64,000 nt of DNA from Leucoraja ocellata. Its lineage: Eukaryota. This document shows positions 1,745 through 51,439 of the stretch, in pieces. The stretch covers positions 6,510,001 to 6,574,000 of the forward strand of contig JAWMAR010000010.1 in assembly GCA_036785375.1 (NCBI GenBank), written 5' to 3'. The notes beneath the pieces are model-generated. The model was not told the origin of the DNA. It ran no database searches and saw nothing but the letters and a program-made list of their open reading frames with translations. Made by a program: the position numbers and the translations under genes. Position 1 is the first letter of the stretch; each line of letters opens with the position of its first letter.

Positions 1745-2265
1745 ATGGGGATCCTTTTAGCTTGTATCCTGTGTCTCTGTATATGCCCAGAGTACGGCTC
1801 ACACACTTCCACATTGTTCCGGTTTAGTGTAAATTTGTCCGTGGCTATTTTTTAAATGAATTTGAATCACCATCCGAGTTCAGTTGCTCGCCTCTGATGC
1901 CCATTCATGTCTCCCAGTGTATAACCGCCAGGCGTATTCAGGCATTCGGTGACGCAGAGTCCGACAGGGGTGACCGGGCAGTTTGTCTGTCCTTTACGAT
2001 CTCCTGCCACTTTCGGATTTGTTCGCTAAGTTCATACCGTTTTAACTCTGGACCCGTGTTCTAACAAACCCAGACCGTGGAAGAGCTGCAGCGGGTCATC
2101 GTGGGGGAACCGTGTGTCGTATCGACCAATAAAGCGGACATGACATTTACGCTGGAAATTCGGGACATGAGAGTTGGTGACTGCGCCAACTATCAATGCC
2201 AAGTTGCAGATAGCTGGACCGTATGGGGTTTGGATATGCACATTGGAATGGAAGGACGCATTTAA
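1745..2265 (+). pseudogene. Ig/TCR-type leader + V exon pseudogene, IgNAR-V / NAR-TCR-V-like, frameshifted
   Basis: Leader MGILLACILCLCICP starts at ATG 1745 with gtacgg at 1792. A short intron ends at acceptor ccgccAG (1931). The exon then reads (G)VFRHSVTQSPTGVTG / LSFTISCHF (Cys 2005) / W (2049) / VEELQRVIVGEPCVVSTNKADMTFTLEIRDMRVGDCANYQCQV (Cys 2197). These segments are in different frames. Confidence 0.7.
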
Positions 2266-2598
2266 ACGCTATATGATCAGAATCGGCCATCAGAATTAAA
2301 GGATTGTTGTATTAGTAACCTTGCTATCAAGTTCAATTTCATTGTAATTTTCTCTTTCTAAGTTATTTAACTGCCGTTTGGTTCCGACGTTCCTGATATT
2401 AACCGTGTCTAAACCATTTTATTAACCCATTGAGAGCTCCGTTCCTCAATGGGAACAAAATCATCCACTAGGCGTTTGGGAAACACGGAATATTATTTGT
2501 TCTTCTGAAGCACTGGAATAATTGGGCAGCGTTTCCTGTTGCTTTCCGGGTAAAATGGGGTGAGGACTTTCTTTTACCGGGAAGACTGAGGGCTGGAT

Positions 2599-2663
2599 CA
2601 CTGTGTATGACTGTCATGCTTACTATAAAAATGGAGCGGGGGCAAGCATGATTTTCACGCCGG
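2599..2663 (+). pseudogene. Candidate J segment preceded by an RSS heptamer
   Basis: Perfect CACTGTG at 2599-2605 is followed by YDCHAYYKNGAGASMIFTP, which has a G-A-G motif like IgNAR J ('DGAGTVLTVNP'). The nonamer is degenerate (T-rich, ~22-23 nt upstream) and there is no intact GT donor. Confidence 0.45.
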
Positions 2664-5359: not shown

Positions 5360-5429
5360 ATGGGTCGCCTGCAACACTTGCCGGTTGAATATTACTATTA
5401 CCCAATCCTGGCATCAATTGGAGTGCCGG
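5360..5429 (+). CDS. GPR139-like class A GPCR, exon 1
   Basis: ATG 5360 gives MGRLQHLPVEYYYYPILASIGVP, then G|gtaggt phase-1 donor. It supplies the first half of TM1 missing from the 6181 ORF. Confidence 0.85.
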
Positions 5430-6181
5430 GTAGGTCACTTGACGGTTACATGTGCTGGACGACATTTGATTGGGAAACGGCAATGATGAAAATAAAGTGA
5501 AAATACTGTGACAAAACGTGCTAAATGTTCGGTTGCACCATGGAACGGGGTTTGGGGAATAACATGAATGTATTTATTTCATCGTTTGCCGTTTACTGGG
5601 ACTGGTATAAAATTGTTCTTGTATTATTGTTTAGAGTCAAGTCGAGTCAAGAGTCAATAGTGTTTTATTGTCAAATGTCCCGGACGGGACAATGAAATTC
5701 TTAACTGCTGCTATACCTAACAGAATATGTGAATGTGTGATCATTGTATATAATGAGGAAGAAATAAAAAGTTCAATGACTAACAAATATAGTGCACATA
5801 GCAAATAATAATATAGTATTTTGCTGTTCAGAGCTCATAGCTTATTCGTTGCGTTTAATAGCCTGATGGCTGTGGGGAAATAGCTGTTGCTAAACCTGGA
5901 CGTTACAGTCTTCAGGCGCCTTTAACTTCTGCCTGATGGCAGTGGTGAGATAAGTGTGTGGCTAGGATGGTGTTTCTCTGTTGATTTATTCACTGTTAGG
6001 TGGAATGTTTATTCGTGAGCGCAGTGTCAGGGATCGCATTCAAAACAAAGGAATCCCCGTCCATCACATCCATTTCACAATTTTAGGAAAGTAAGCAAAA
6101 TATTAATATATACCCACCCATCACTCAACTGGAAGTTATTCTGTCCACATAATCACCATTGCTTCTTTCTTACTCCATTAG

Positions 6182-7080
6182 TGAATCTACTGGCGATTGT
6201 GGTCCTGTCCCGAGGAAAGTGCGGTCTCTCCAAATGCATCACTCGTTATCTGGTGGCTATGGCGACGGCGGACCTCACGGTGATTGTCTGCGAAGTGATT
6301 TTAAATCGGATTGTAGTTCTTTATTGGTGGAACACAATCCTGTACTACACACCTGTGTGCAGGTGTATTCTCTTCCTGTCCGCAGCGGCAGTAGACTGTT
6401 CCGTGTGGTTCACGGTCGCTTTCACATTTGATAGGTTTGTGGCCATCTCCAAACCGAATCTGAGATCCAGATACTGCACCGACAGAACCGCGGCGGTGGT
6501 TATGGTGACCCTATGTGCCTTCTTCTGTTTACAGAACGTTCCCTGGCCTTTCGCCTATGATTCTTTCCTAATGCAGATTGGCTGCCGAATCCGATGGGAC
6601 TTCTATTACCTGCCCGCATGGATCGCATTTTCTTGGATGGAGCCGCTGTTGACCCCAGTGATTCCATTCTGTTTGATTTTGTTTTTTAATGCGCACACGG
6701 CGAGACGTATTTTAATGGCCAATCGGGTCCGCAGGAGGCTCCGCGATCTCAGTCGTGGAGACCCGGAGACAGAAAGCCGTAAACGGTCAATCATTTTACT
6801 CTTTGCAATTTCCAGCAGCTTTATCCTGCTCTGGGTCACAACTGTATCTCATTTTGTTTACTATCGATGTGTCACCGGAATTTGGGGGCGAGGTTTCACA
6901 AACCCATATGCAAAATTTGAAAAAATTGGAGTTCTGCTGCAGCTGCTGAACACGTGTACAAACACACTGATTTACACCGTCACCCAGGGGAAGTTCAGAG
7001 AGCAGCTCCTTCACGCAATTCAATGGCCCGTTGCGTTAACTGGAACGTTTGTGCAAAATATCAAATCATTTTTAAAATGA
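6182..7080 (+). CDS. GPR139/GPR142-like class A GPCR, exon 2 (spliced product 322 aa)
   Basis: Polypyrimidine tract and AG at 6180-6181, in phase with exon 1 (GVP-V-NLL). 7TM pattern with YLVAMATADL, SVWFTVAFTFDRFVAI and NTCTNTLIY. Stop TGA ends at 7080. Confidence 0.9.
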
Positions 7081-8639
7081 CATCAGGTAACACGTCACCC
7101 GAGTGTTACATTATGGATCTCTGGTGAAGAGAGGGCATTGAACGAAAATCTCACCTATCTTTCAAAAAACATTTTTAAAAATGTCACTCACATTCGGCTA
7201 AAACAATAATATCCCCGCACATGACAGCGTAGAGCGGTTTTGGCAGCCCCACCGGTCCCCAGGCCCGCCCCCTGCCCTTTAAATTGAACACCGCCTATTT
7301 CCGTGTAGGGCGAACTGCGGGTCCCGATGTTCACTTCTACTGGAGCGGACGCCCGGTATTTCCAGTTGAAAAATCTGCGACATCTCTGATTTCCTTTCAA
7401 TCCAGCAGCCGCCCTATTCGGCTCTAAATGCAAAACCTTTAAGTTTCCCGATGCGTTCCGCGTCCTTCGCACTTGAATTCTTACTCATGTGGGTGCCCAA
7501 GTCACAACTTTACTTGATGACATTAACGTAGAGTGCGTCTCCCACATTCCAGCGGCAACATTCAACTGAACGGGAGTTTCATTGTATTCTTTGTGCCCCC
7601 TTTCAACAGAACCCGTTATTCCCATTTAGAGGCGCTTTCGGATTACATTGCACTAATTAACTAAACAATAGATGAAAGTAACGAGAATTGCTGATATTCA
7701 TACAAGCCAGTGTAGATACATATTCTATATTATTAGATAAAGGAGATATTGACAGTCTACAGATTTTACCGCGGTAATGTGCATAGATATGATTGATATG
7801 CAGAATATCTGACGGTTTGTGCACCTAAATGTCCCATCTGCCATGTAGAGATTGGCTCTCTCGCTGTCTCTTCTCTGCTGAATGGATACTGGCTGGTTAT
7901 ATAACCCATTCTTCAAATATCTTTGCAGTATTACACGTTACATCTGAACATTCAAATTCAGGAACCACATGTGGACCAGATTGACGAATCCTGACAGACC
8001 TCACGACATTCACATAACACCTGGACAAAAATGACGCGTGGTTCTGTGAGGTATTGTCAGCATTTTGCCAGTGACACCGGGCGAGTTATCTTCCCACAGT
8101 CACGATTGTTTTATTATCCTCTGTTCTAAAGCGGAACAACGAAGAATGTACTCGCAGCACCACAACAGACAAGTAAACATCATACTGTGCAAAAGTTCCA
8201 TTATCCGAGGATATGACAGCCCAGCCATCCCGGGAATTAACCTAGGAAACTTACGCTACACTCCGTCAATAGCAAGAATGTCCTTCCTCAAATTAGGGGA
8301 CATGTAATGTCATGACTCCTTTAATGGAGTTATATTGTAAATGCTTCATTATCAAGAGTTTTTTCCAATGTGCTCCACGAGATGCCGATTTACATTAAAC
8401 CGTGACATCGGGAAGGGAGCTGTCGCTCTCGGTGAATATGTTCCAGATTCGTTGTTCGTTCGTTTTGACATGCTCTCCAAGGTCCCGTTAAACAGCTCGC
8501 AGAACTAATGTTACATAGGAATTAAATGCCCATGACAGACATATGACTTTTTCTCTTGTTATCAACTAAACAAATATGTGTTATTTAAGGTAATGGTTAT
8601 ATTGTAATCAATCTCTTTATCCCAGGAGGTTGCAGGCAG

Positions 8640-14700: not shown

Positions 14701-15294
14701 TTAGAACCACTCGAAGGGCCGAATGGCCTACTCCTGCACCTATTTTCTATGTTGCTATACATGACCTTTTCTCTTGTTATCAACTAAACAAATATGTGAT
14801 ATTTAAGATAATGTTTATATTGTGATCCATCTCTTTATCCCAGTGTGTATAATCGCCAGGCGTCTTCAGGCATTCGATGACTCAGTGTCCGACAGGGTGA
14901 CCGGGAATAATGAAAGAATATCCAATCCTGGAAACAGGCGCGATTTCTTCAACTTCCTCCTCCCATAATTTGGACAAACGATCTCGGTGGAAGCTTCAAG
15001 GGACTGTCGAAATATCTCCCAGAAGTGAGTCTGAAAGACTCGTTACATATGCAGCATTCTTTATTGTACAAGCCGCATATAAAGAGCGTCTCAATCAAGG
15101 GCTCAGGTCACAACTCCAATGATAATTGTAATGCGCAGATATTTGTACAGAGAAGTGAGGGAGTGGCGCCTGAGGTTTTACCAAACAGTAGGACCAGGAG
15201 GGTTAGTTGTGCAATGTGCACCAGCTGATCGCAGCAGAAATATGTTAATAATATCTTGCGAAAGGAAACTTGTGATTAACTGCTCACATGACAG

Positions 15295-19739: not shown

Positions 19740-20050
19740 TGACTGAATGATTGAATGAATGAATGTATGAGTGAATGTATGAATGAATTAATGAATGTAT
19801 GATTGAATGCATGAATGATTGAATGAATGCATGATTGAATGAATGAATGTATGATTGAANNNNNNNNNNNNNNNNNNNNNNNNNNNNNNNNNNNNNNNNN
19901 NNNNNNNNNNNNNNNNNNNNNNNNNNNNNNNNNNNNNNNNNNNNNNNNNNNNNNNNNNNNNNNNNNNNNNNNNNNNNNNNNNNNNNNNNNNNNNGAATGA
20001 TTGATTGAGTGATGAGTGAATGAGCGAATGCATGAATAATTTTGAATGAA
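19740..20050. repeat. (GAAT)n microsatellite flanking assembly gap 19860-19994
   Basis: Direct observation. Confidence 0.95.
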
Positions 20051-24878: not shown

Positions 24879-25211
24879 CTGTTGCAACTTGCAGTTGGAT
24901 CTCGCACTGGAACAGATGGTCGGTCGAGATCACGAGACAGAGGTAGCCGCCACTGTCCTCCACACTCAGCTGCTTTATCCTGGTTGAGGCGTTTCCCAGC
25001 TCTGGGTTCCCGACCAGCTCGAACCGAGTTGTTCCGTTCTCCGCCGCCCAGGATCTATCAGCTTGGGGTCTGAACGCGACGATGTGCCGGTCGCGATCCT
25101 TCCTCATCCATGTGACCGTGCGAGGCATGTGCCTCGGCAGAGGCGGTGAGAAGACACAGGGTAACGTGGCCGAAGCCCCCTCAGTCCCAGTCACCAATGA
25201 GACATTGCGAG
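24879..25211 (-). CDS. Siglec-15-like receptor exon 3 (V-set Ig domain 2)
   Basis: Acceptor ccttccctcAG, donor G|gtaaga, 333 nt, phase 1-1. Reads GASATLPCVF..VTW..RFELVGNPELGNASTRIKQLSVEDSGGYLC. Confidence 0.85.
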
Positions 25212-25687
25212 CTGAGGGAAGGACAGACACCGGTCAAGAGAAGCAGGACGAGGGAGCTGGAGATACTGTAAACTGGAAATAAGAACTGGATGCTGGGCTC
25301 ATGCTGAATGAGCTTTAGATGGGTCATAAGTTCATAAGTGGTATGAAATAAATGGGCCCATCAAGTCTACCATTCAAACATGGCTGATCTATCTTACCCT
25401 CTCAAACCCATTCTCCTGCCTTCTGCTCGACACCCGTACTAATCAAGAATCTGGCAAATCTCTGCCTCAAAAATATCCATTGACGACCTCCACAGCCTTC
25501 TGTGGCAATGCATTCCACAGATTCCCCACCCTCTGACCTCCTCATCTCCATTCTAAAAGTACATCCTTTTATTCTGAAGCTGTGGCCTCTGGTCCTTGAC
25601 TCTCCCACTAGTGGAAACATCCTCTCCACATCCAGGCCTTTCTCTATACAGTAAGTTTCTATGAAGGCTCCGCTCATCCTTCTATCC

Positions 25688-30029: not shown

Positions 30030-31140
30030 CTCCCCTCCCCTCCCCTCCCCTCCCCTACCCTTCCCTATCCCCTCCCCTCCCCTCCCCTCCCCTACCCTCC
30101 CCTCCCCTCCCCACCCTCCTCACCTCCGTTCAGCGACTTCAGAAGTCACCTCCCAGCAAATCCCCATCACATTTTGTGTCCATCGTTATGATGCATCACC
30201 TACACACACACATATGCACATGCACACAAACACACGCACATAGGCATGAATGCACACATACACACACACACACACACACATAGGCATGAATGCATACACA
30301 CACACACACATAACATGCGCACACACATATACACACAACATGCACACATACTCATGTACACACTCACACACAGATACGTGCCATCACACATGTACAAACA
30401 CATGCACGCACACAGACNNNNNNNNNNNNNNNNNNNNNNNNNNNNNNNNNNNNNNNNNNNNNNNNNNNNNNNNNNNNNNNNNNNNNNNNNNNNNNNNNNN
30501 NNNNNNNNNNNNNNNNNNNNNNNNNNNNNNNNNNNNNNNNNNNNNNNNNNNNNNNNNNNNNNNNNNNNNNNNNNNNNNNNNNNNNNNNNNNNNNNNNNNN
30601 NNNNNNNNNNNNNNNNNNNNATGCACACGTACATTCACAGATATATGCACACAAAAATGAGACGCATACACACAGTCACTGACATACACACAAACAAGAC
30701 ACGTACACAGTGACACGTACACACTGCCGCATATACACACGCACACAAATGAGATGTGCACACATACAGGAATATGGACAGACACACAAATATACACTAG
30801 CAAGTGACACACACACACACATACATGAAGACACTCGCACACACAAGACATACAAATGGACACACATACACGCACTCACACATTCATACAAAAAACATAC
30901 ACATTGACCCAATAACACATACAAACCAAGAGACATTGACACATACGTGCATAAACGCACCCTACAGAATCGCACACACATAGATGTACAACCCACATGT
31001 ATACACCCATACACAAACAGACACACACGCATAGAGATAGACACACATGTACTCACACACATGCACTCGCACAGACACACATGCAGCCGCAAATGCAGCA
31101 CCAACACACACATTTTCCACATTTACACACACACAAATAC
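30030..31140. repeat. (TCCCC)n plus degenerate CA-rich satellite with assembly gap 30418-30620
   Basis: Direct observation. Confidence 0.95.
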
Positions 31141-34469: not shown

Positions 34470-34676
34470 CTGGAATAGAAAGGGTCGATAATCAATATCG
34501 CGTCGGTAATATCGTGAATAATATTTAGTGCAAGATAAAAGTCAAGTAAAGTTTGATCATAGACTATGATCAAACTTTACTCATAGACAGCCCAAAAGTC
34601 TCCAATGAGGTAGATGGTGGTACAGCACTGCTCTCTAATTCTAGTAGGATGGTTCAGTTGCCTGACAAGAGTCGGG

Positions 34677-38304: not shown

Positions 38305-39035
38305 GGTCTGGGTGTGTGTATGTGGGTTGTATATCTATGTGTGTGTGATTCTGTAGCGTGCGTTCATGCACGTATGAGTCAATGTCTCTTGGTTTGTGTG
38401 TGTGTCATTGGGTCATTGTTTTTATATGAATGTGTGAGTGCGTGTATGTGTGTCCATTTGTGTCTTGTGCGTGCGAGTGACTTTATGTATGTGTGTGTGT
38501 GTGTGTGTTACATTCTGGTGTATGTTTGTGTGTCTGTCTATATTCCTGTATGTGTACGCATCTCATTTGCGTGCGTGTGTATATGTGACAGCGTGTACGT
38601 GACACTGTGTATTGTCTACTTTGTGTGTATGTCAGTGACTGTGTGTGTGTCTCATTTCTGTGTACATATATCTGTGAATGTATGTGTGCATCTGCAACNN
38701 NNNNNNNNNNNNNNNNNNNNNNNNNNNNNNNNNNNNNNNNNNNNNNNNNNNNNNNNNNNNNNNNNNNNNNNNNNNNNNNNNNNNNNNNNNNNNNNNNNNN
38801 NNNNNNNNNNNNNNNNNNNNNNNNNNNNNNNNNNNNNNNNNNNNNNNNNNNNNNNNNNNNNNNNNNNNNNNNNNNNNNNNNNNNNNNNNNNNNNNNNNNN
38901 NNNNNNNNNNNNNNNNNNNNNNNNNNNNNNNNNNNNNNNNNNNNNNNNNNNNTAGCACGTGTGTGTTTGTGCGAGTGTATGTGTGTATATGCATGTATGT
39001 GTGTGTGTCTGTTGTATGTATGTGCGTGTGTGTGT
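38305..39035. repeat. GT-rich satellite (inverted paralog of 30620-31080) with assembly gap 38699-38952
   Basis: Reverse-complement similarity, e.g. tcaatgtctcttggtttg vs caaaccaagagacattga. Confidence 0.9.
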
Positions 39036-39630
39036 CCAGTGGAGGTTTACGAGAATGATCCCAGGGATGAGTGGGTTAACATATGATGAGCATTTGACTG
39101 CACTGGGCCTGTACTGGCTGGAGTGTAGAAGTATGAGAAGGACCTGCACAGAAACTTACTGAATAGTGAAAGGCATGGATAGAGTGCATGTGGAGAGGAT
39201 GTTTCCCCTAGTGGGAGATTCAAGGACAAGAGGCCACAGCATCAGCATAAAAGGATGTACATTTAGAATGGAGATGAGGTGGAATTTATTTAGTCAGAGG
39301 GTGGTGAATCTGTGGAATTCATATCCGTCGAAGGGTGTGGAGGCCAAGTCAATGGATATTTTTGAGACAGAGATTTGCCAGATTCTTGATTAGCACGGGT
39401 GTCAGGGGTTGCGGGGAGAAGGCAGGGGATTTAGGTTGAGAGGGTAAGATAGATCAGCCATGTTTGAATGGTAGACTTAGTGGGCCTAATTCAACTCATA
39501 TCACTTATGAACTTATGACACATCTAAAGCTCATTCAGCACGAGTCCAGCATCCAGTTCTTATTTCCTGCTTACATTAGCTCCAGCTCCCTCGTCCTGCT
39601 TATCTTGACCAGTGTCTGATCTTCCTTCAG

Positions 39631-39897
39631 CTCCCAGAGGGAATGTCTCAGTGGTGACTGGGACTAAGGGGGGTTCGGCCACGTTACCCTGTGTGTTCCC
39701 ACCGCCTCCACTCAACCAGGTCCCGCTCGCGGTCACATGGATGTGGAAGGATCCCTACCGACACATCGTCACGCTCAGACCCCAAGCTGGTGGATCCTGG
39801 GCGGCGGAGAACGGAGCAACTCGGTTCGAGCTGGTCGGGGACCCAGAGCTGGGAAACGCCGCAACCAGGATAAAGCAGCTGAGTGTGGAGGACAATC
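39631..39897 (+). pseudogene. Inverted, 3'-truncated paralogous copy of the V2 exon
   Basis: Reads GGSATLPCVFPPPPLNQVPLAVTWMWKDPYRHIV...IKQLSVEDN and then breaks into a SINE before the F-strand Cys. The upstream intron is also homologous to 25212-25680. Confidence 0.85.
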
Positions 39898-41161
39898 ACG
39901 GTGGAGATTGTGACCTTATCCCCTCTTCCAATTCCCAATTTTAATACTTACCAAAGCCAATTAACCTACAAATCTGTACATCCTTGGAGTGTGGGAGGGA
40001 ACCGGAACACCCAGTGTAAACCCACAGAGGGAGAACGTACAAACTCCGTACAGACAGCACCCCTAGTCAGATCAAATCCGGGACCTCTGGCGCTGTAAGG
40101 CAGCATCTCTACCATAGCCAATAGGGAAATTTTCTCTTTTGTGCATGCGTATGGCATGATTGCAAGTCAAGAATCAACAGTATTTAATTATCATATGTGC
40201 TGAAACAAGACAATGACATTCTTATTTACAACAGCATAACATGGTCTGTAGGCACATTAGATAGCATGATAATCGAAAGATCAATAAAGTAACAAAAAAA
40301 AAACAATATTAGTTATAAAAAGGATAAAAAGAATGTAATAATAAGGACTGATGGTGGTTTATACCAAGATAGATTCAAAATGCTGGAGTCACTCAGTGGG
40401 TCAGGCAGCATCTCTAGAGAATACTCCCTCTTCTCCCCTCTCGCATCAGGCAATAGGTACAAAAGTGTGAAAACGCACATCTCCAGATTCAGGGATAGTT
40501 TCTTCCCAGCTGTTTTCACGCAACTGAACCATTCCCATCAACAACTGGAGGGCGATCCTGAGCTACCAATGTGACTTAGACATGATCCAAGTCACATTGA
40601 AGCCCCTTGGAATATCTTAAATCGGACTTCATTGGACTTTATCTTGCACTAAACGTTATTCCCTCTATCCTGGATCTGTACACGGTGGACGGTTGGATTG
40701 TATTCATGTACAGTCTTTCTGTTGAGTGGATGGCACACAACAAAATAAGCTTTACTCTGTACCTTGGTACACCTGGCAATAAACTAAACTCATCTAAACT
40801 GGGTGACGTTTCTGAAGACAGGCCCTGACACAAAACATCACCTATCCATGTTCTTCAGTCTAAAGATAGGTCTAAGTCCCCTCAGTCTGAAGAAGGGTCT
40901 CGACTCAAAATGTCATCTATGCCTTTTCTCCCGAAATGCTGCCTGACCAGTTGTTACTCCAGCATTTTGTGTCCACCTTCACCAGAAATGCAGCCTGTCC
41001 CACCGAGTTACTCCAGCACTTTGTGACTATCCCGATATTAGTATATCCCATGGATTGACTGGAAAGCACACAAACACGGTTCTTCACTGTAACTCGGTAC
41101 AGGCAACAGTAATAAACCTACACTGTACCAATAAAGCGATCGTAATAAAAAAGACACCTAC

Positions 41162-49409: not shown

Positions 49410-49860
49410 CTCATGTCCCGGGCTCTGGGACACTCCGAGCCAAAGATCCTCTAGTATCTTTGCTCCGAGCGGCGGCTTTGCTGGGCTCGGCAGTGGCCCG
49501 CAGGCGGCGCCCGGGGTCTGCGGCAGGCGGGCGGGCAGGGTAGGGCAGGGCAAGGCAGGGCAGCGCCGCCCCGCTCCAGCCTCCCCGCCCTCCCGGCGCT
49601 CCCACATAAGGAGCCGGAGCCGGAGCCGGAGCCAGCGCTGTGCGCAGGGCGGCAGCTCCGTCAGTCCCAGCGTCGGGATCGCAGGCGGAGCCGGTGCCGG
49701 AGAGCGCAGCCCGGGAGGCCTAGCCGGAGCGGGAGCAGCTAAACCGGGATCAAAGGTGGAGGAGCACTTACACCGGGATCAGACTCGGAGCGGGCGGTGC
49801 AAACCGGGAGCAGGCTAGGAATCGGGAGCAACTAAACTGAGATCAGATCAGGAACGCGAA
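49410..49860 (+). promoter_or_regulatory. CpG island, probable promoter/5' end of the TESK gene
   Basis: Very GC- and CpG-rich stretch with GGGCGG boxes and (GGAGCC)n, 1.3-1.7 kb upstream of the kinase ATG. Confidence 0.75.
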
Positions 49861-50455
49861 CCCGGGATCAAACAGAATCAGATCTGGAGCAGATAGACTG
49901 GGATCTAACCAGGATCAGATCAGGAGCAGATAGACTGGGATCTAACCAGGATCAGATCAGGAGCAGATAGACTGGGATCTAACCAGGATCAGATCAGGAG
50001 CAGATAGACTGGGATCTAACCAGGATCAGACTGGGATCAATCGAGGATTGGAAAGACTGGGTGGGATCCGACAAGGAATCAGCAGATATCCTGGGACTGG
50101 ACCAGGATCAGCAGATAGACTGGGATCAGATCTGGAATCAGCTGCAGATAGACAGGGATCAAACCAGGATCGGACTGGGATCAATCGAGGATTGGAAAGA
50201 CTGGGTGGGATCCGACAAGGAATCAGCAGATATCCTGGGACTGGACCAGGACTCAGGATCAGGTAGACTGGGATCAAACAGGATCAGGTAGACTGGGATC
50301 AGACCAGGAGCAGATATACCAGGGTCAGGCCAGGAGCAGGTAGACCAGGGTCAGACCAGGATCAGCCAGACTGGGATCAGGCCCAGATCAGTCCAGGATT
50401 AGATAGACCGGGTCAAACCAGGAGCAGATAGATTGGAAAATCGGACCAGGAATCG
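49860..50455 (+). repeat. GGATC-rich minisatellite (37-bp unit x4, then ~144-bp higher-order duplication)
   Basis: agcagatagactgggatctaaccaggatcagatcagg starts at 49888, 49925, 49962 and 49999. The tcgaggattggaaagactggg block occurs at 50041 and 50185. Confidence 0.9.
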
Positions 50456-51145: not shown

Positions 51146-51364
51146 ATGGCGAGGGAAACAAACCTGAGATTGGACTTGCCCAGTGAGGTCCTGGTGCCGG
51201 ACTGCGGGCCCTACTCGGCCCCCGTGTCGGGCGCGATGCTCGGCTGCAACTGTATGCGACCCTCCTCATACCGGGCGCTGTGCAGCGCTGTGTCCACCCT
51301 GGCCAGGATCGACGACTTCTACTGCGAGAAGATCGGCTCGGGATTCTTCTCGGAAGTGTTCAAG
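51146..51364 (+). CDS. TESK1: Dual-specificity testis-specific protein kinase (TESK family, TESK1-like), first coding exon
   Basis: [36 protein letters not shown]|gtaagg contains the TESK N-terminal motif and the kinase Gly-rich loop. SAVSxLAR favours TESK1 over TESK2, but this is not decisive. No exon 2 was recognised before the window end. Confidence 0.85.
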
Positions 51365-51439
51365 GTAAGGGTCTGACCGTCTAATCTAAAGAGTGTTTCA
51401 ATGTAGACTCATGGAACTGCTTTACAAACAAACACAAAA

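Follow-up and report, generated by a model that had tools for sequence, protein, structure and literature searches.

The cassette at positions 1745 to 2663 of the window, the whole 64,000-nt stretch of Leucoraja ocellata DNA analysed here, is real and, judged by its sequence, of NAR-TCR rather than IgNAR origin. Quite probably, it represents a defunct and detached copy of the module of a skate NAR-TCR gene that lies distal to the membrane and consists of a leader, a NAR-type V, D segments and a J. The leader, the 140-nt intron, the V lacking CDR2 and the J all match NAR-TCR gene models from sharks and rays. The original prediction of a decayed single-domain antigen-receptor L-V-(D)-J relic adjoining non-Ig genes is therefore supported in its general outline. 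The features of the cassette are as follows:

1745–1791 (+): leader exon, NAR-TCR type, 47 nt to the first GT, phase 2 (V acceptor phase 1)
1792–1931 (+): leader intron, 140 nt, GT...AG, with the acceptor (1930–1931) placed by homology
1932–2223 (+): NAR-TCR V pseudogene, by homology, profile and alignment
1984–1986, 2005–2007 and 2197–2199 (+): cysteines of the V in the a-b loop, B-strand and F-strand, respectively
near 1982 and 2062–2064 (+): lesions of the V, a frameshift and a TAA, respectively
2221–2238 (+): 15–18 extra nt past the normal V coding end, candidate N/D of a putative germline V-D join
2239–2266 (+): heptamer CACATTG and degenerate nonamer, not a V-type NAR-TCR RSS and best read as a putative 12-spacer D-type RSS
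2401–2463 (+): candidate D (2408–2425) with a weak 5' heptamer (2401–2407) and a 3' 22-spacer RSS (2426–2463)
2567–2605 (+): J RSS with a perfect heptamer and a spacer of 23 (22–24) nt
2606–2663 (+): NAR-TCR J of 19 codons + 1 nt, the length seen in Pristis P0082, with AG at 2664 where the donor is lost

Identity of the V domain

Scored against a profile of NAR-TCR V domains, the V of the window reached 77.0 bits, and the best other site in the window outside the cassette 10.8 bits. A phmmer search of 1.84 billion representatives returned 35 matches, which were rescored by single domain. The top 15 by this score were all shark or ray NAR-TCR-type models (31.7–54.2 bits) and the other 20 scored 13.9 bits or less, so that the best matches are not non-rearranging V-set proteins. 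A non-rearranging V-set receptor of the NKp30, CD8 or UrIg kind is also at odds with the layout of the cassette, in which V and J do not form a single VJ exon and are split by about 380 nt with RSSs. Most of the 15 top models display the order leader, NAR-type V, J and second V, and one of them runs on into a TCR constant region. A profile built from the top models gave 85 matches including LOC121270138, which carries the label NARTCRdV in Table S1 of Flajnik (2025).

NAR-TcRV is defined by a leader, a cysteine in the a-b loop, the loss of the WYRK tryptophan and an associated leaderless V-delta (PMC1845163). The a-b loop cysteine is present in the window V (TGT at 1984–1986), as in 69 of 71 homologues. 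The W41/WYR column contains Val (GTG at 2056), and Phe in 69 of 71 homologues. With 64 aa, the core Cys-to-Cys span lies within the range of the family (59–65, mode 63–64) and marks a NAR-type V without CDR2. A V with a short W-to-Cys spacing had been predicted; the short FR2/CDR2 is confirmed by this span, whereas the tryptophan is not. The TGG at 2049, 148 nt 5' of the Cys, was rejected as the V tryptophan, since it is out of the V frame and an alignment with VNARs puts W41 at GTG 2056.

Identity of the window V to models of Pristis and Amblyraja is 45–51%, with 51% to Pristis P0095. In a quick tree (78 rows and 91 columns, with three models without the YYC motif left out), it falls on the batoid side of a branch with an SH-aLRT value of 98 that sets apart 58 shark Vs. 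It is placed on a long branch there, nearest to Pristis P0090 and P0095.

Where the original prediction spoke of an IgNAR/NAR-TCR-like cassette, the NAR-TCR part holds, given the best single-domain phmmer score (54 bits, NAR-TCR-type, versus 28 for solved VNARs), the a-b cysteine and the missing WYR tryptophan, and the IgNAR part is to be dropped. The predicted Ig-style "minicluster" is likewise the wrong frame. With the identity settled as NAR-TCR, the absence that matters most is that of the supporting V-delta without a leader, and not that of Ig C exons.

Lesions of the leader, V and J

Both the leader exon and an intron of about 140 nt had been predicted and were recovered. A PSSM built from 33 homologue leaders ranked the site at 1745 first of 126,491 six-frame windows (score 40.1; runner-up 24.1). 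The leader is opened by the ATG at 1745 and ends at the GT at 1792. Its splice is out of phase, as the exon has 47 nt to this GT versus the 43 nt implied by the homologues. The first reading frame of the V holds up to about 1981; a second frame, interrupted once by the TAA at 2062, extends from 1984 to 2259. No GT follows the J, and its splice donor is thus lost. The cassette is a pseudogene by its out-of-phase leader splice, frameshift, stop codon and lost J donor, and no protein is made from it.

RSSs, candidate D and J

RSSs were scored by a hand-weighted match (maximum 21) to what we take to be the RSS consensus. Heptamer-like sites and nonamer were located at 2239, 2426, 2455 and 2599. 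The J RSS scored 16 of 21 with a 23-nt spacer (10 of 126,512 sites were as good) and 11 with 12 nt. The end of its spacer and its heptamer (2583–2612) fit a read-through model of the sawfish Pristis NAR-TCR, with 26 of 30 nt compatible, which is the unique best site in the window. The 23-spacer RSS of the J is well supported. The J peptide came first of the 126,491 windows when the PSSM was made from 12 batoid J regions and only sixth when all 69 J regions were used; the region also aligns with those of batoids. With a short HMM of the J, no match was obtained in the window, and the J was recovered by the PSSM instead.

The other two RSSs score as weaker candidates than that of the J. The element at 2239 is weak with any spacer (12–13 of 21, 0.5–1.2% of background sites being as good). 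The candidate 3' RSS of the D, CCCATTG-22-ACAAAATCA at 2426–2463, has CCC in place of the CAC of the heptamer and scored 16 of 21 with its 22-nt spacer (21 of 126,520 sites; chance expectation in the V-J interval about 0.2). It is a plausible RSS; in view of how many positions were tried, its score is suggestive and short of decisive. Under the 12/23 rule, the evidence for a candidate D of the cassette's own consists of one plausible 22-spacer RSS and weak 5' RSSs. A third D near 2492–2533 was rejected at only 12–13 of 21.

Much of this layout had been anticipated. The V does stretch to CACATTG at 2239, 39 nt past the last Cys, and the CCCATTG-22 RSS lies where it was described. The CACTGTG at 2599 and the J-like peptide behind it are present as well, but the J had been given the wrong start, the true one being 2606, five codons before YYKN.

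A possible germline V-D join

On the sequence evidence, we lean somewhat towards the view that the V was joined to its first D in the germline, which would have left a D-type RSS at 2239. Among the 83 models with a YYC motif, 29 read through the presumed V heptamer, at 16–24 nt past the Cys; the offset is 22–24 nt in 26 of the 29 and greater than 24 nt in none. In the window it is 39 nt, a displacement of 15–18 nt, and a V-type spacer is absent at 2239. The canonical V-RSS peptides (P0091, P0023, P0098) fit 2221–2224 and 2239 at background level only. V-like coding runs to about 2220, the normal end of a V, and is followed by 15–18 foreign bases. The heptamer at 39 nt versus 16–24 nt, together with the lack of a V-type spacer, suggests a germline V-D join, and a RAG coding joint would account for a break exactly at the V end. 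The element at 2239 resembles the read-through motif of P0109 (20 of 30 nt, a fit equalled at 62 of 63,291 sites), which is readable as heptamer, 12-nt spacer and nonamer. Against the join, this motif also admits a reading as one portion of a variant V RSS with a 22-nt spacer. Joining in germ cells is established for shark Ig (PMC2193156). The predicted partial germline joining of the cassette thereby gains real, if indirect, support from the offset and the missing V-RSS signature and falls short of proof.

It is also well conceivable that no join took place and that the cassette is an unrearranged V-D-J, whose V has a naturally or secondarily longer 3' end with a decayed 22/23-spacer RSS at 2239. 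Such an RSS scores 13 of 21 with a 22-nt spacer, as good as with 12, and P0109 and P0077 are examples of NAR-TCR Vs whose sequence beyond the coding end is variant. The join, in turn, needs a less familiar D layout, i.e., a 12-spacer RSS and then a D with a 3' 22-spacer RSS. What tells against an unrearranged cassette is the absence of offsets above 24 nt from the 29 read-through models, the misfit of the canonical V-RSS peptides at 2239 and the start of the extra bases at the normal coding end, as expected for a RAG coding joint.

Three shark NAR-TCR V models (P0109, P0077 and P0113) have a variant sequence past the coding end, which may be a variant V RSS or another V-D fusion. In P0109, heptamers at distances of 22 and 12 nt could share a single nonamer. 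Table S1 of Flajnik (2025) gives the label V(gj) to one NARTCR model of the great white. RSS read-through is present in many database NAR-TCR models with the appearance of a V-J join, and "germline-joined" labels taken from gene models may therefore be annotation artefacts.

Missing partner exons and neighbouring genes

In the intact locus, V, D and J are joined by RAG. Splicing connects the J to a supporting V-delta without a leader, which itself rearranges to D-delta, J-delta and C-delta; the product is a three-domain TCR-delta chain with an unpaired V (PMC1845163 and PMC5931798). An HMM from nine supporting V domains found no supporting V-delta in the 61 kb downstream (best score outside the cassette 6.7 bits). 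An HMM from two C-delta regions likewise found no C-delta in the window (best 5.1 bits outside the cassette), in agreement with the original prediction that recognisable C exons are absent. No C1-like exon was present among the listed open frames of at least 110 aa, a cut-off that exceeds the length of C exons. All seven great white NARTCR models span 3.8–12.0 kb. Since the supporting V-delta was not found, the cassette is not a complete NAR-TCR gene, though it worked like a NAR-TCR module. Three features downstream of it are relevant here:

5360–7080 (+): GPR139-like GPCR in two exons (5360–5429 and 6182–7080), a neighbour located where the supporting V-delta is expected
14838–14905 (+): second copy of a V-start fragment, 68 nt, 88% identical to 1912–1978 (V acceptor and start)
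51146–51370 (+): first coding exon of a TESK1-like kinase, synteny marker, 98.7% identical to Leucoraja P0236 over 75 aa

The GPR139-like gene has an open second exon (7tm_1, E 1.8e-18; best PDB match GPR139, E 2.7e-7) and, together with TESK1, provides the non-Ig neighbours that had been predicted. A GC-rich stretch and a degenerate tandem repeat (49841–50451) precede the TESK1-like exon, and no further TESK1 exons were matched in the window. Searching the PDB with the kinase exon yielded nothing informative. The V-start fragment at 14838 is fused to a copy of 8543–8625, which shows a later local rearrangement. This acceptor-like segment of 83 nt is duplicated at 93% within 14761–14905, with a short stretch shared at the fusion. 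A loose end in run X3, one of the DNA runs of related organisms described below, suggests the V-start fragment in that relative too.

Two single-exon V-set domains are encoded about 9 kb apart on the minus strand, at 34491–33892 and 25233–24832 (Pfam V-set, E 2e-12 and 3e-14). The best PDB matches of the exon at 25233–24832 are CD276 and pIgR, and an atlas look-up of both exons returned generic V-set clusters only. They probably belong to one non-rearranging multi-V receptor gene. As candidate parts of a NAR-TCR they were rejected, scoring 10.8 bits or less against the NAR-TCR V profile. An inverted, broken duplicate of the V-set region 24954–25684 is found at 39126–39941 (84% over 769 nt).

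Genomic placement

The cassette is likely an orphon, copied from the TCR-alpha/delta region to the TESK1 region. TESK1 orthologues lie on a 212-Mb sequence in Heterodontus and a 229-Mb sequence in Cetorhinus, and the placed NAR-TCR models on sequences of 59.5 Mb and 65.2 Mb, respectively. An orphon is indicated because TESK1 and NAR-TCR thus occupy different chromosome-scale sequences in two sharks. For Hypanus, the kinase maps to a sequence of 182 Mb, whereas the complex has been published on chromosome 26, where its listed coordinates are 9.7–32.1 Mb. This comparison rests on sharks and Hypanus; in Leucoraja, the scaffold that carries the NAR-TCR model measures 208 kb, and no Amblyraja TESK1 was among the 120 of 544 matches listed. 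The non-Ig neighbours alone are no proof of an orphon because shark NAR-TCR cassettes scatter among other genes. Those of the great white are spread over 8.4–17.1 Mb of chr27 (about 9 Mb), one of them marked as a possible pseudogene. We do not go beyond "likely" because there are three short N gaps between cassette and TESK1 (19860–19994, 30418–30620 and 38699–38952), the DNA analysed begins at window position 1, and the comparison covers Heterodontus, Cetorhinus and Hypanus.

An ordinary NAR-TCR pseudogene in or at the edge of the TCR-alpha/delta complex also has to be weighed, with the supporting V-delta deleted locally and the link to TESK1 due to a scaffolding error or a lineage-specific fusion. 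The three gaps, the dispersed cassettes of great white chr27 with their possible pseudogene, and the confinement of the analysis to DNA from position 1 onward would all agree with it. We nevertheless regard it as unlikely, as the gaps are short (135–254 nt) and lie within simple-repeat tracts, the 64 kb contain no further scoring site for a NAR-TCR V, a supporting V or a C-delta, and TESK1 and NAR-TCR are on separate sequences in the two sharks.

A much older origin, as an antigen-receptor relic left on an MHC/AgRC-paralogous chromosome after whole-genome duplication, would fit the adjacent non-rearranging V-set exons and the location of TESK1 on human 9p. Flajnik (2025) argues that there are links of antigen receptors with human chromosome 9. 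This origin is highly improbable for the cassette, whose V groups with batoid NAR-TCR Vs inside the shark-ray family (51% to Pristis P0095) and which has kept a batoid-like J and J-RSS sequence.

Comparison with known systems

The cassette shares with NAR-TCR the leader type, a CDR2-less V with the a-b loop Cys and no WYR tryptophan, the J length and the J-RSS region. It differs in being pseudogenised, in having neither a supporting leaderless V-delta nor C-delta, in its probable position off the TCR-alpha/delta chromosome and in a V heptamer displaced by 15–18 nt. The doubly rearranged three-domain delta chain is precluded here by the frameshift, the stop and the lost donor.

IgNAR clusters (V-D1-D2-D3-J-C) likewise have a related CDR2-less single-domain V, a compact V-D-J and a 23-spacer J RSS, and pre-joined segments are known in them, such as the pre-joined D segments of bamboo shark IgNAR clusters (PMC8692893). 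VNARs are also among the best PDB matches of the window V (1ver, 28.2 bits, E 1.8e-5), the first PDB row being a multi-domain antibody scored by summed domains. In spite of this and of the IgH-like 23-spacer RSS at the J, an IgNAR minicluster that lost its C exons is largely refuted and would be most surprising, since an IgNAR V retains the WYR tryptophan and is followed by C exons, whereas the window V lacks this tryptophan, has the a-b loop Cys and scores about half as much against VNARs (28 versus 54 bits, the PDB VNARs being the IgNAR set compared), the leader and J are of NAR-TCR type, and NAR-TCR read-through matches the J-RSS region.

From the germline-joined (VD-J, VD-D-J) Ig clusters of sharks and skates, the cassette differs in that its candidate join concerns a TCR-derived module and would be V-D only. 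Orphons are Ig or TCR V segments outside the main locus. The cassette resembles them as a dispersed, non-functional copy that has kept its intron and RSSs, and differs in holding a whole L-V-D-J module and not a lone V. Neither a NAR-TCR orphon nor a V-D-joined skate NAR-TCR was found in the titles and abstract openings searched, a weak negative with most subscription papers outside coverage. No title on shark TCR orphons was found in the literature searched, and the text "NAR-TCR" is absent from the elephant shark 2014 supplement.

Proposed origin and significance

We posit that the module was copied at the DNA level from the TCR-alpha/delta region into the TESK1 region, perhaps after its V had been joined to its first D in a germ cell. 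Copying at the DNA level is suggested by the retained leader intron and RSSs. The copy would have broken between the J and the supporting V, and would have decayed neutrally from a time before the split of the sampled relatives. An in-frame "ESI" after the J resembles the start of the supporting V and raised the question of a spliced or retroposed origin. Such an origin was rejected, as the likeness ends after three residues, the HMM found nothing, and intron and RSSs are kept.

The NAR-TCR family is already known, and skates have intact-looking models. The cassette belongs to this known system as a decayed variant, with two twists of mild interest that are both unproven. Being dead, the relic does nothing for the animal, and its value is evolutionary. 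According to a published proposal, IgNAR originated when a NAR V(D)J unit was transferred between TCR-delta and an IgW cluster (PMC12227049 and PMC4279169). A copy that ends at the J, without the supporting V and outside the locus, would, if true, exemplify in nature how this unit moves alone. The V-D join, if confirmed, would mean that the activity of RAG in germ cells reaches beyond Ig clusters to a TCR module. Taken together, the cassette might be a fossil of the skate lineage, in which a NAR V-D-J module was RAG-joined (V-D) in a TCR-type germline and then moved to another chromosome without its supporting V-delta. We offer this combined scenario as a tentative one; if true, it would constitute direct genomic evidence both for the mobility of the module as a unit and for germ-cell RAG activity on TCR loci.

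The cassette in related organisms

DNA runs of three related organisms carry the cassette, with 29 of 30 bins covered in X1 and 30 of 30 in both X3 and X17. At a number of positions, among them 1988, 2182 and 2204, the letter in the relatives is closer to the family than that of the window, and this is often the case. One X17 contig of 265 nt spans the leader donor and the frameshift with zero gaps, and these two lesions therefore look shared between the window and X17. This contig is 88% identical and may represent a paralogue or second copy. At the stop codon, no change was present among the substitution rows listed (86 further rows exist). The indel table covers the contigs minus 22 gap letters of one X3 contig.

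In one poly(A) RNA run (tissue not stated, 5% read), none of the reads fell over the cassette, which is weak evidence alone; the nine reads obtained were all in the first, repeat-like bin (1500–1560).

The region immediately upstream (1605–1744) weakly resembles the read-through 5' of Heterodontus NAR-TCR leaders (tblastn E 0.2 and 0.016) and is possibly a conserved promoter. In run X17, a 14-nt insertion follows the heptamer at 2239 (2255–2259). In runs X1 and X17, moreover, some contigs have a 9-nt insertion near 2800 (2798–2803) and others lack it, which hints that the cassette has a second copy or a divergent allele.
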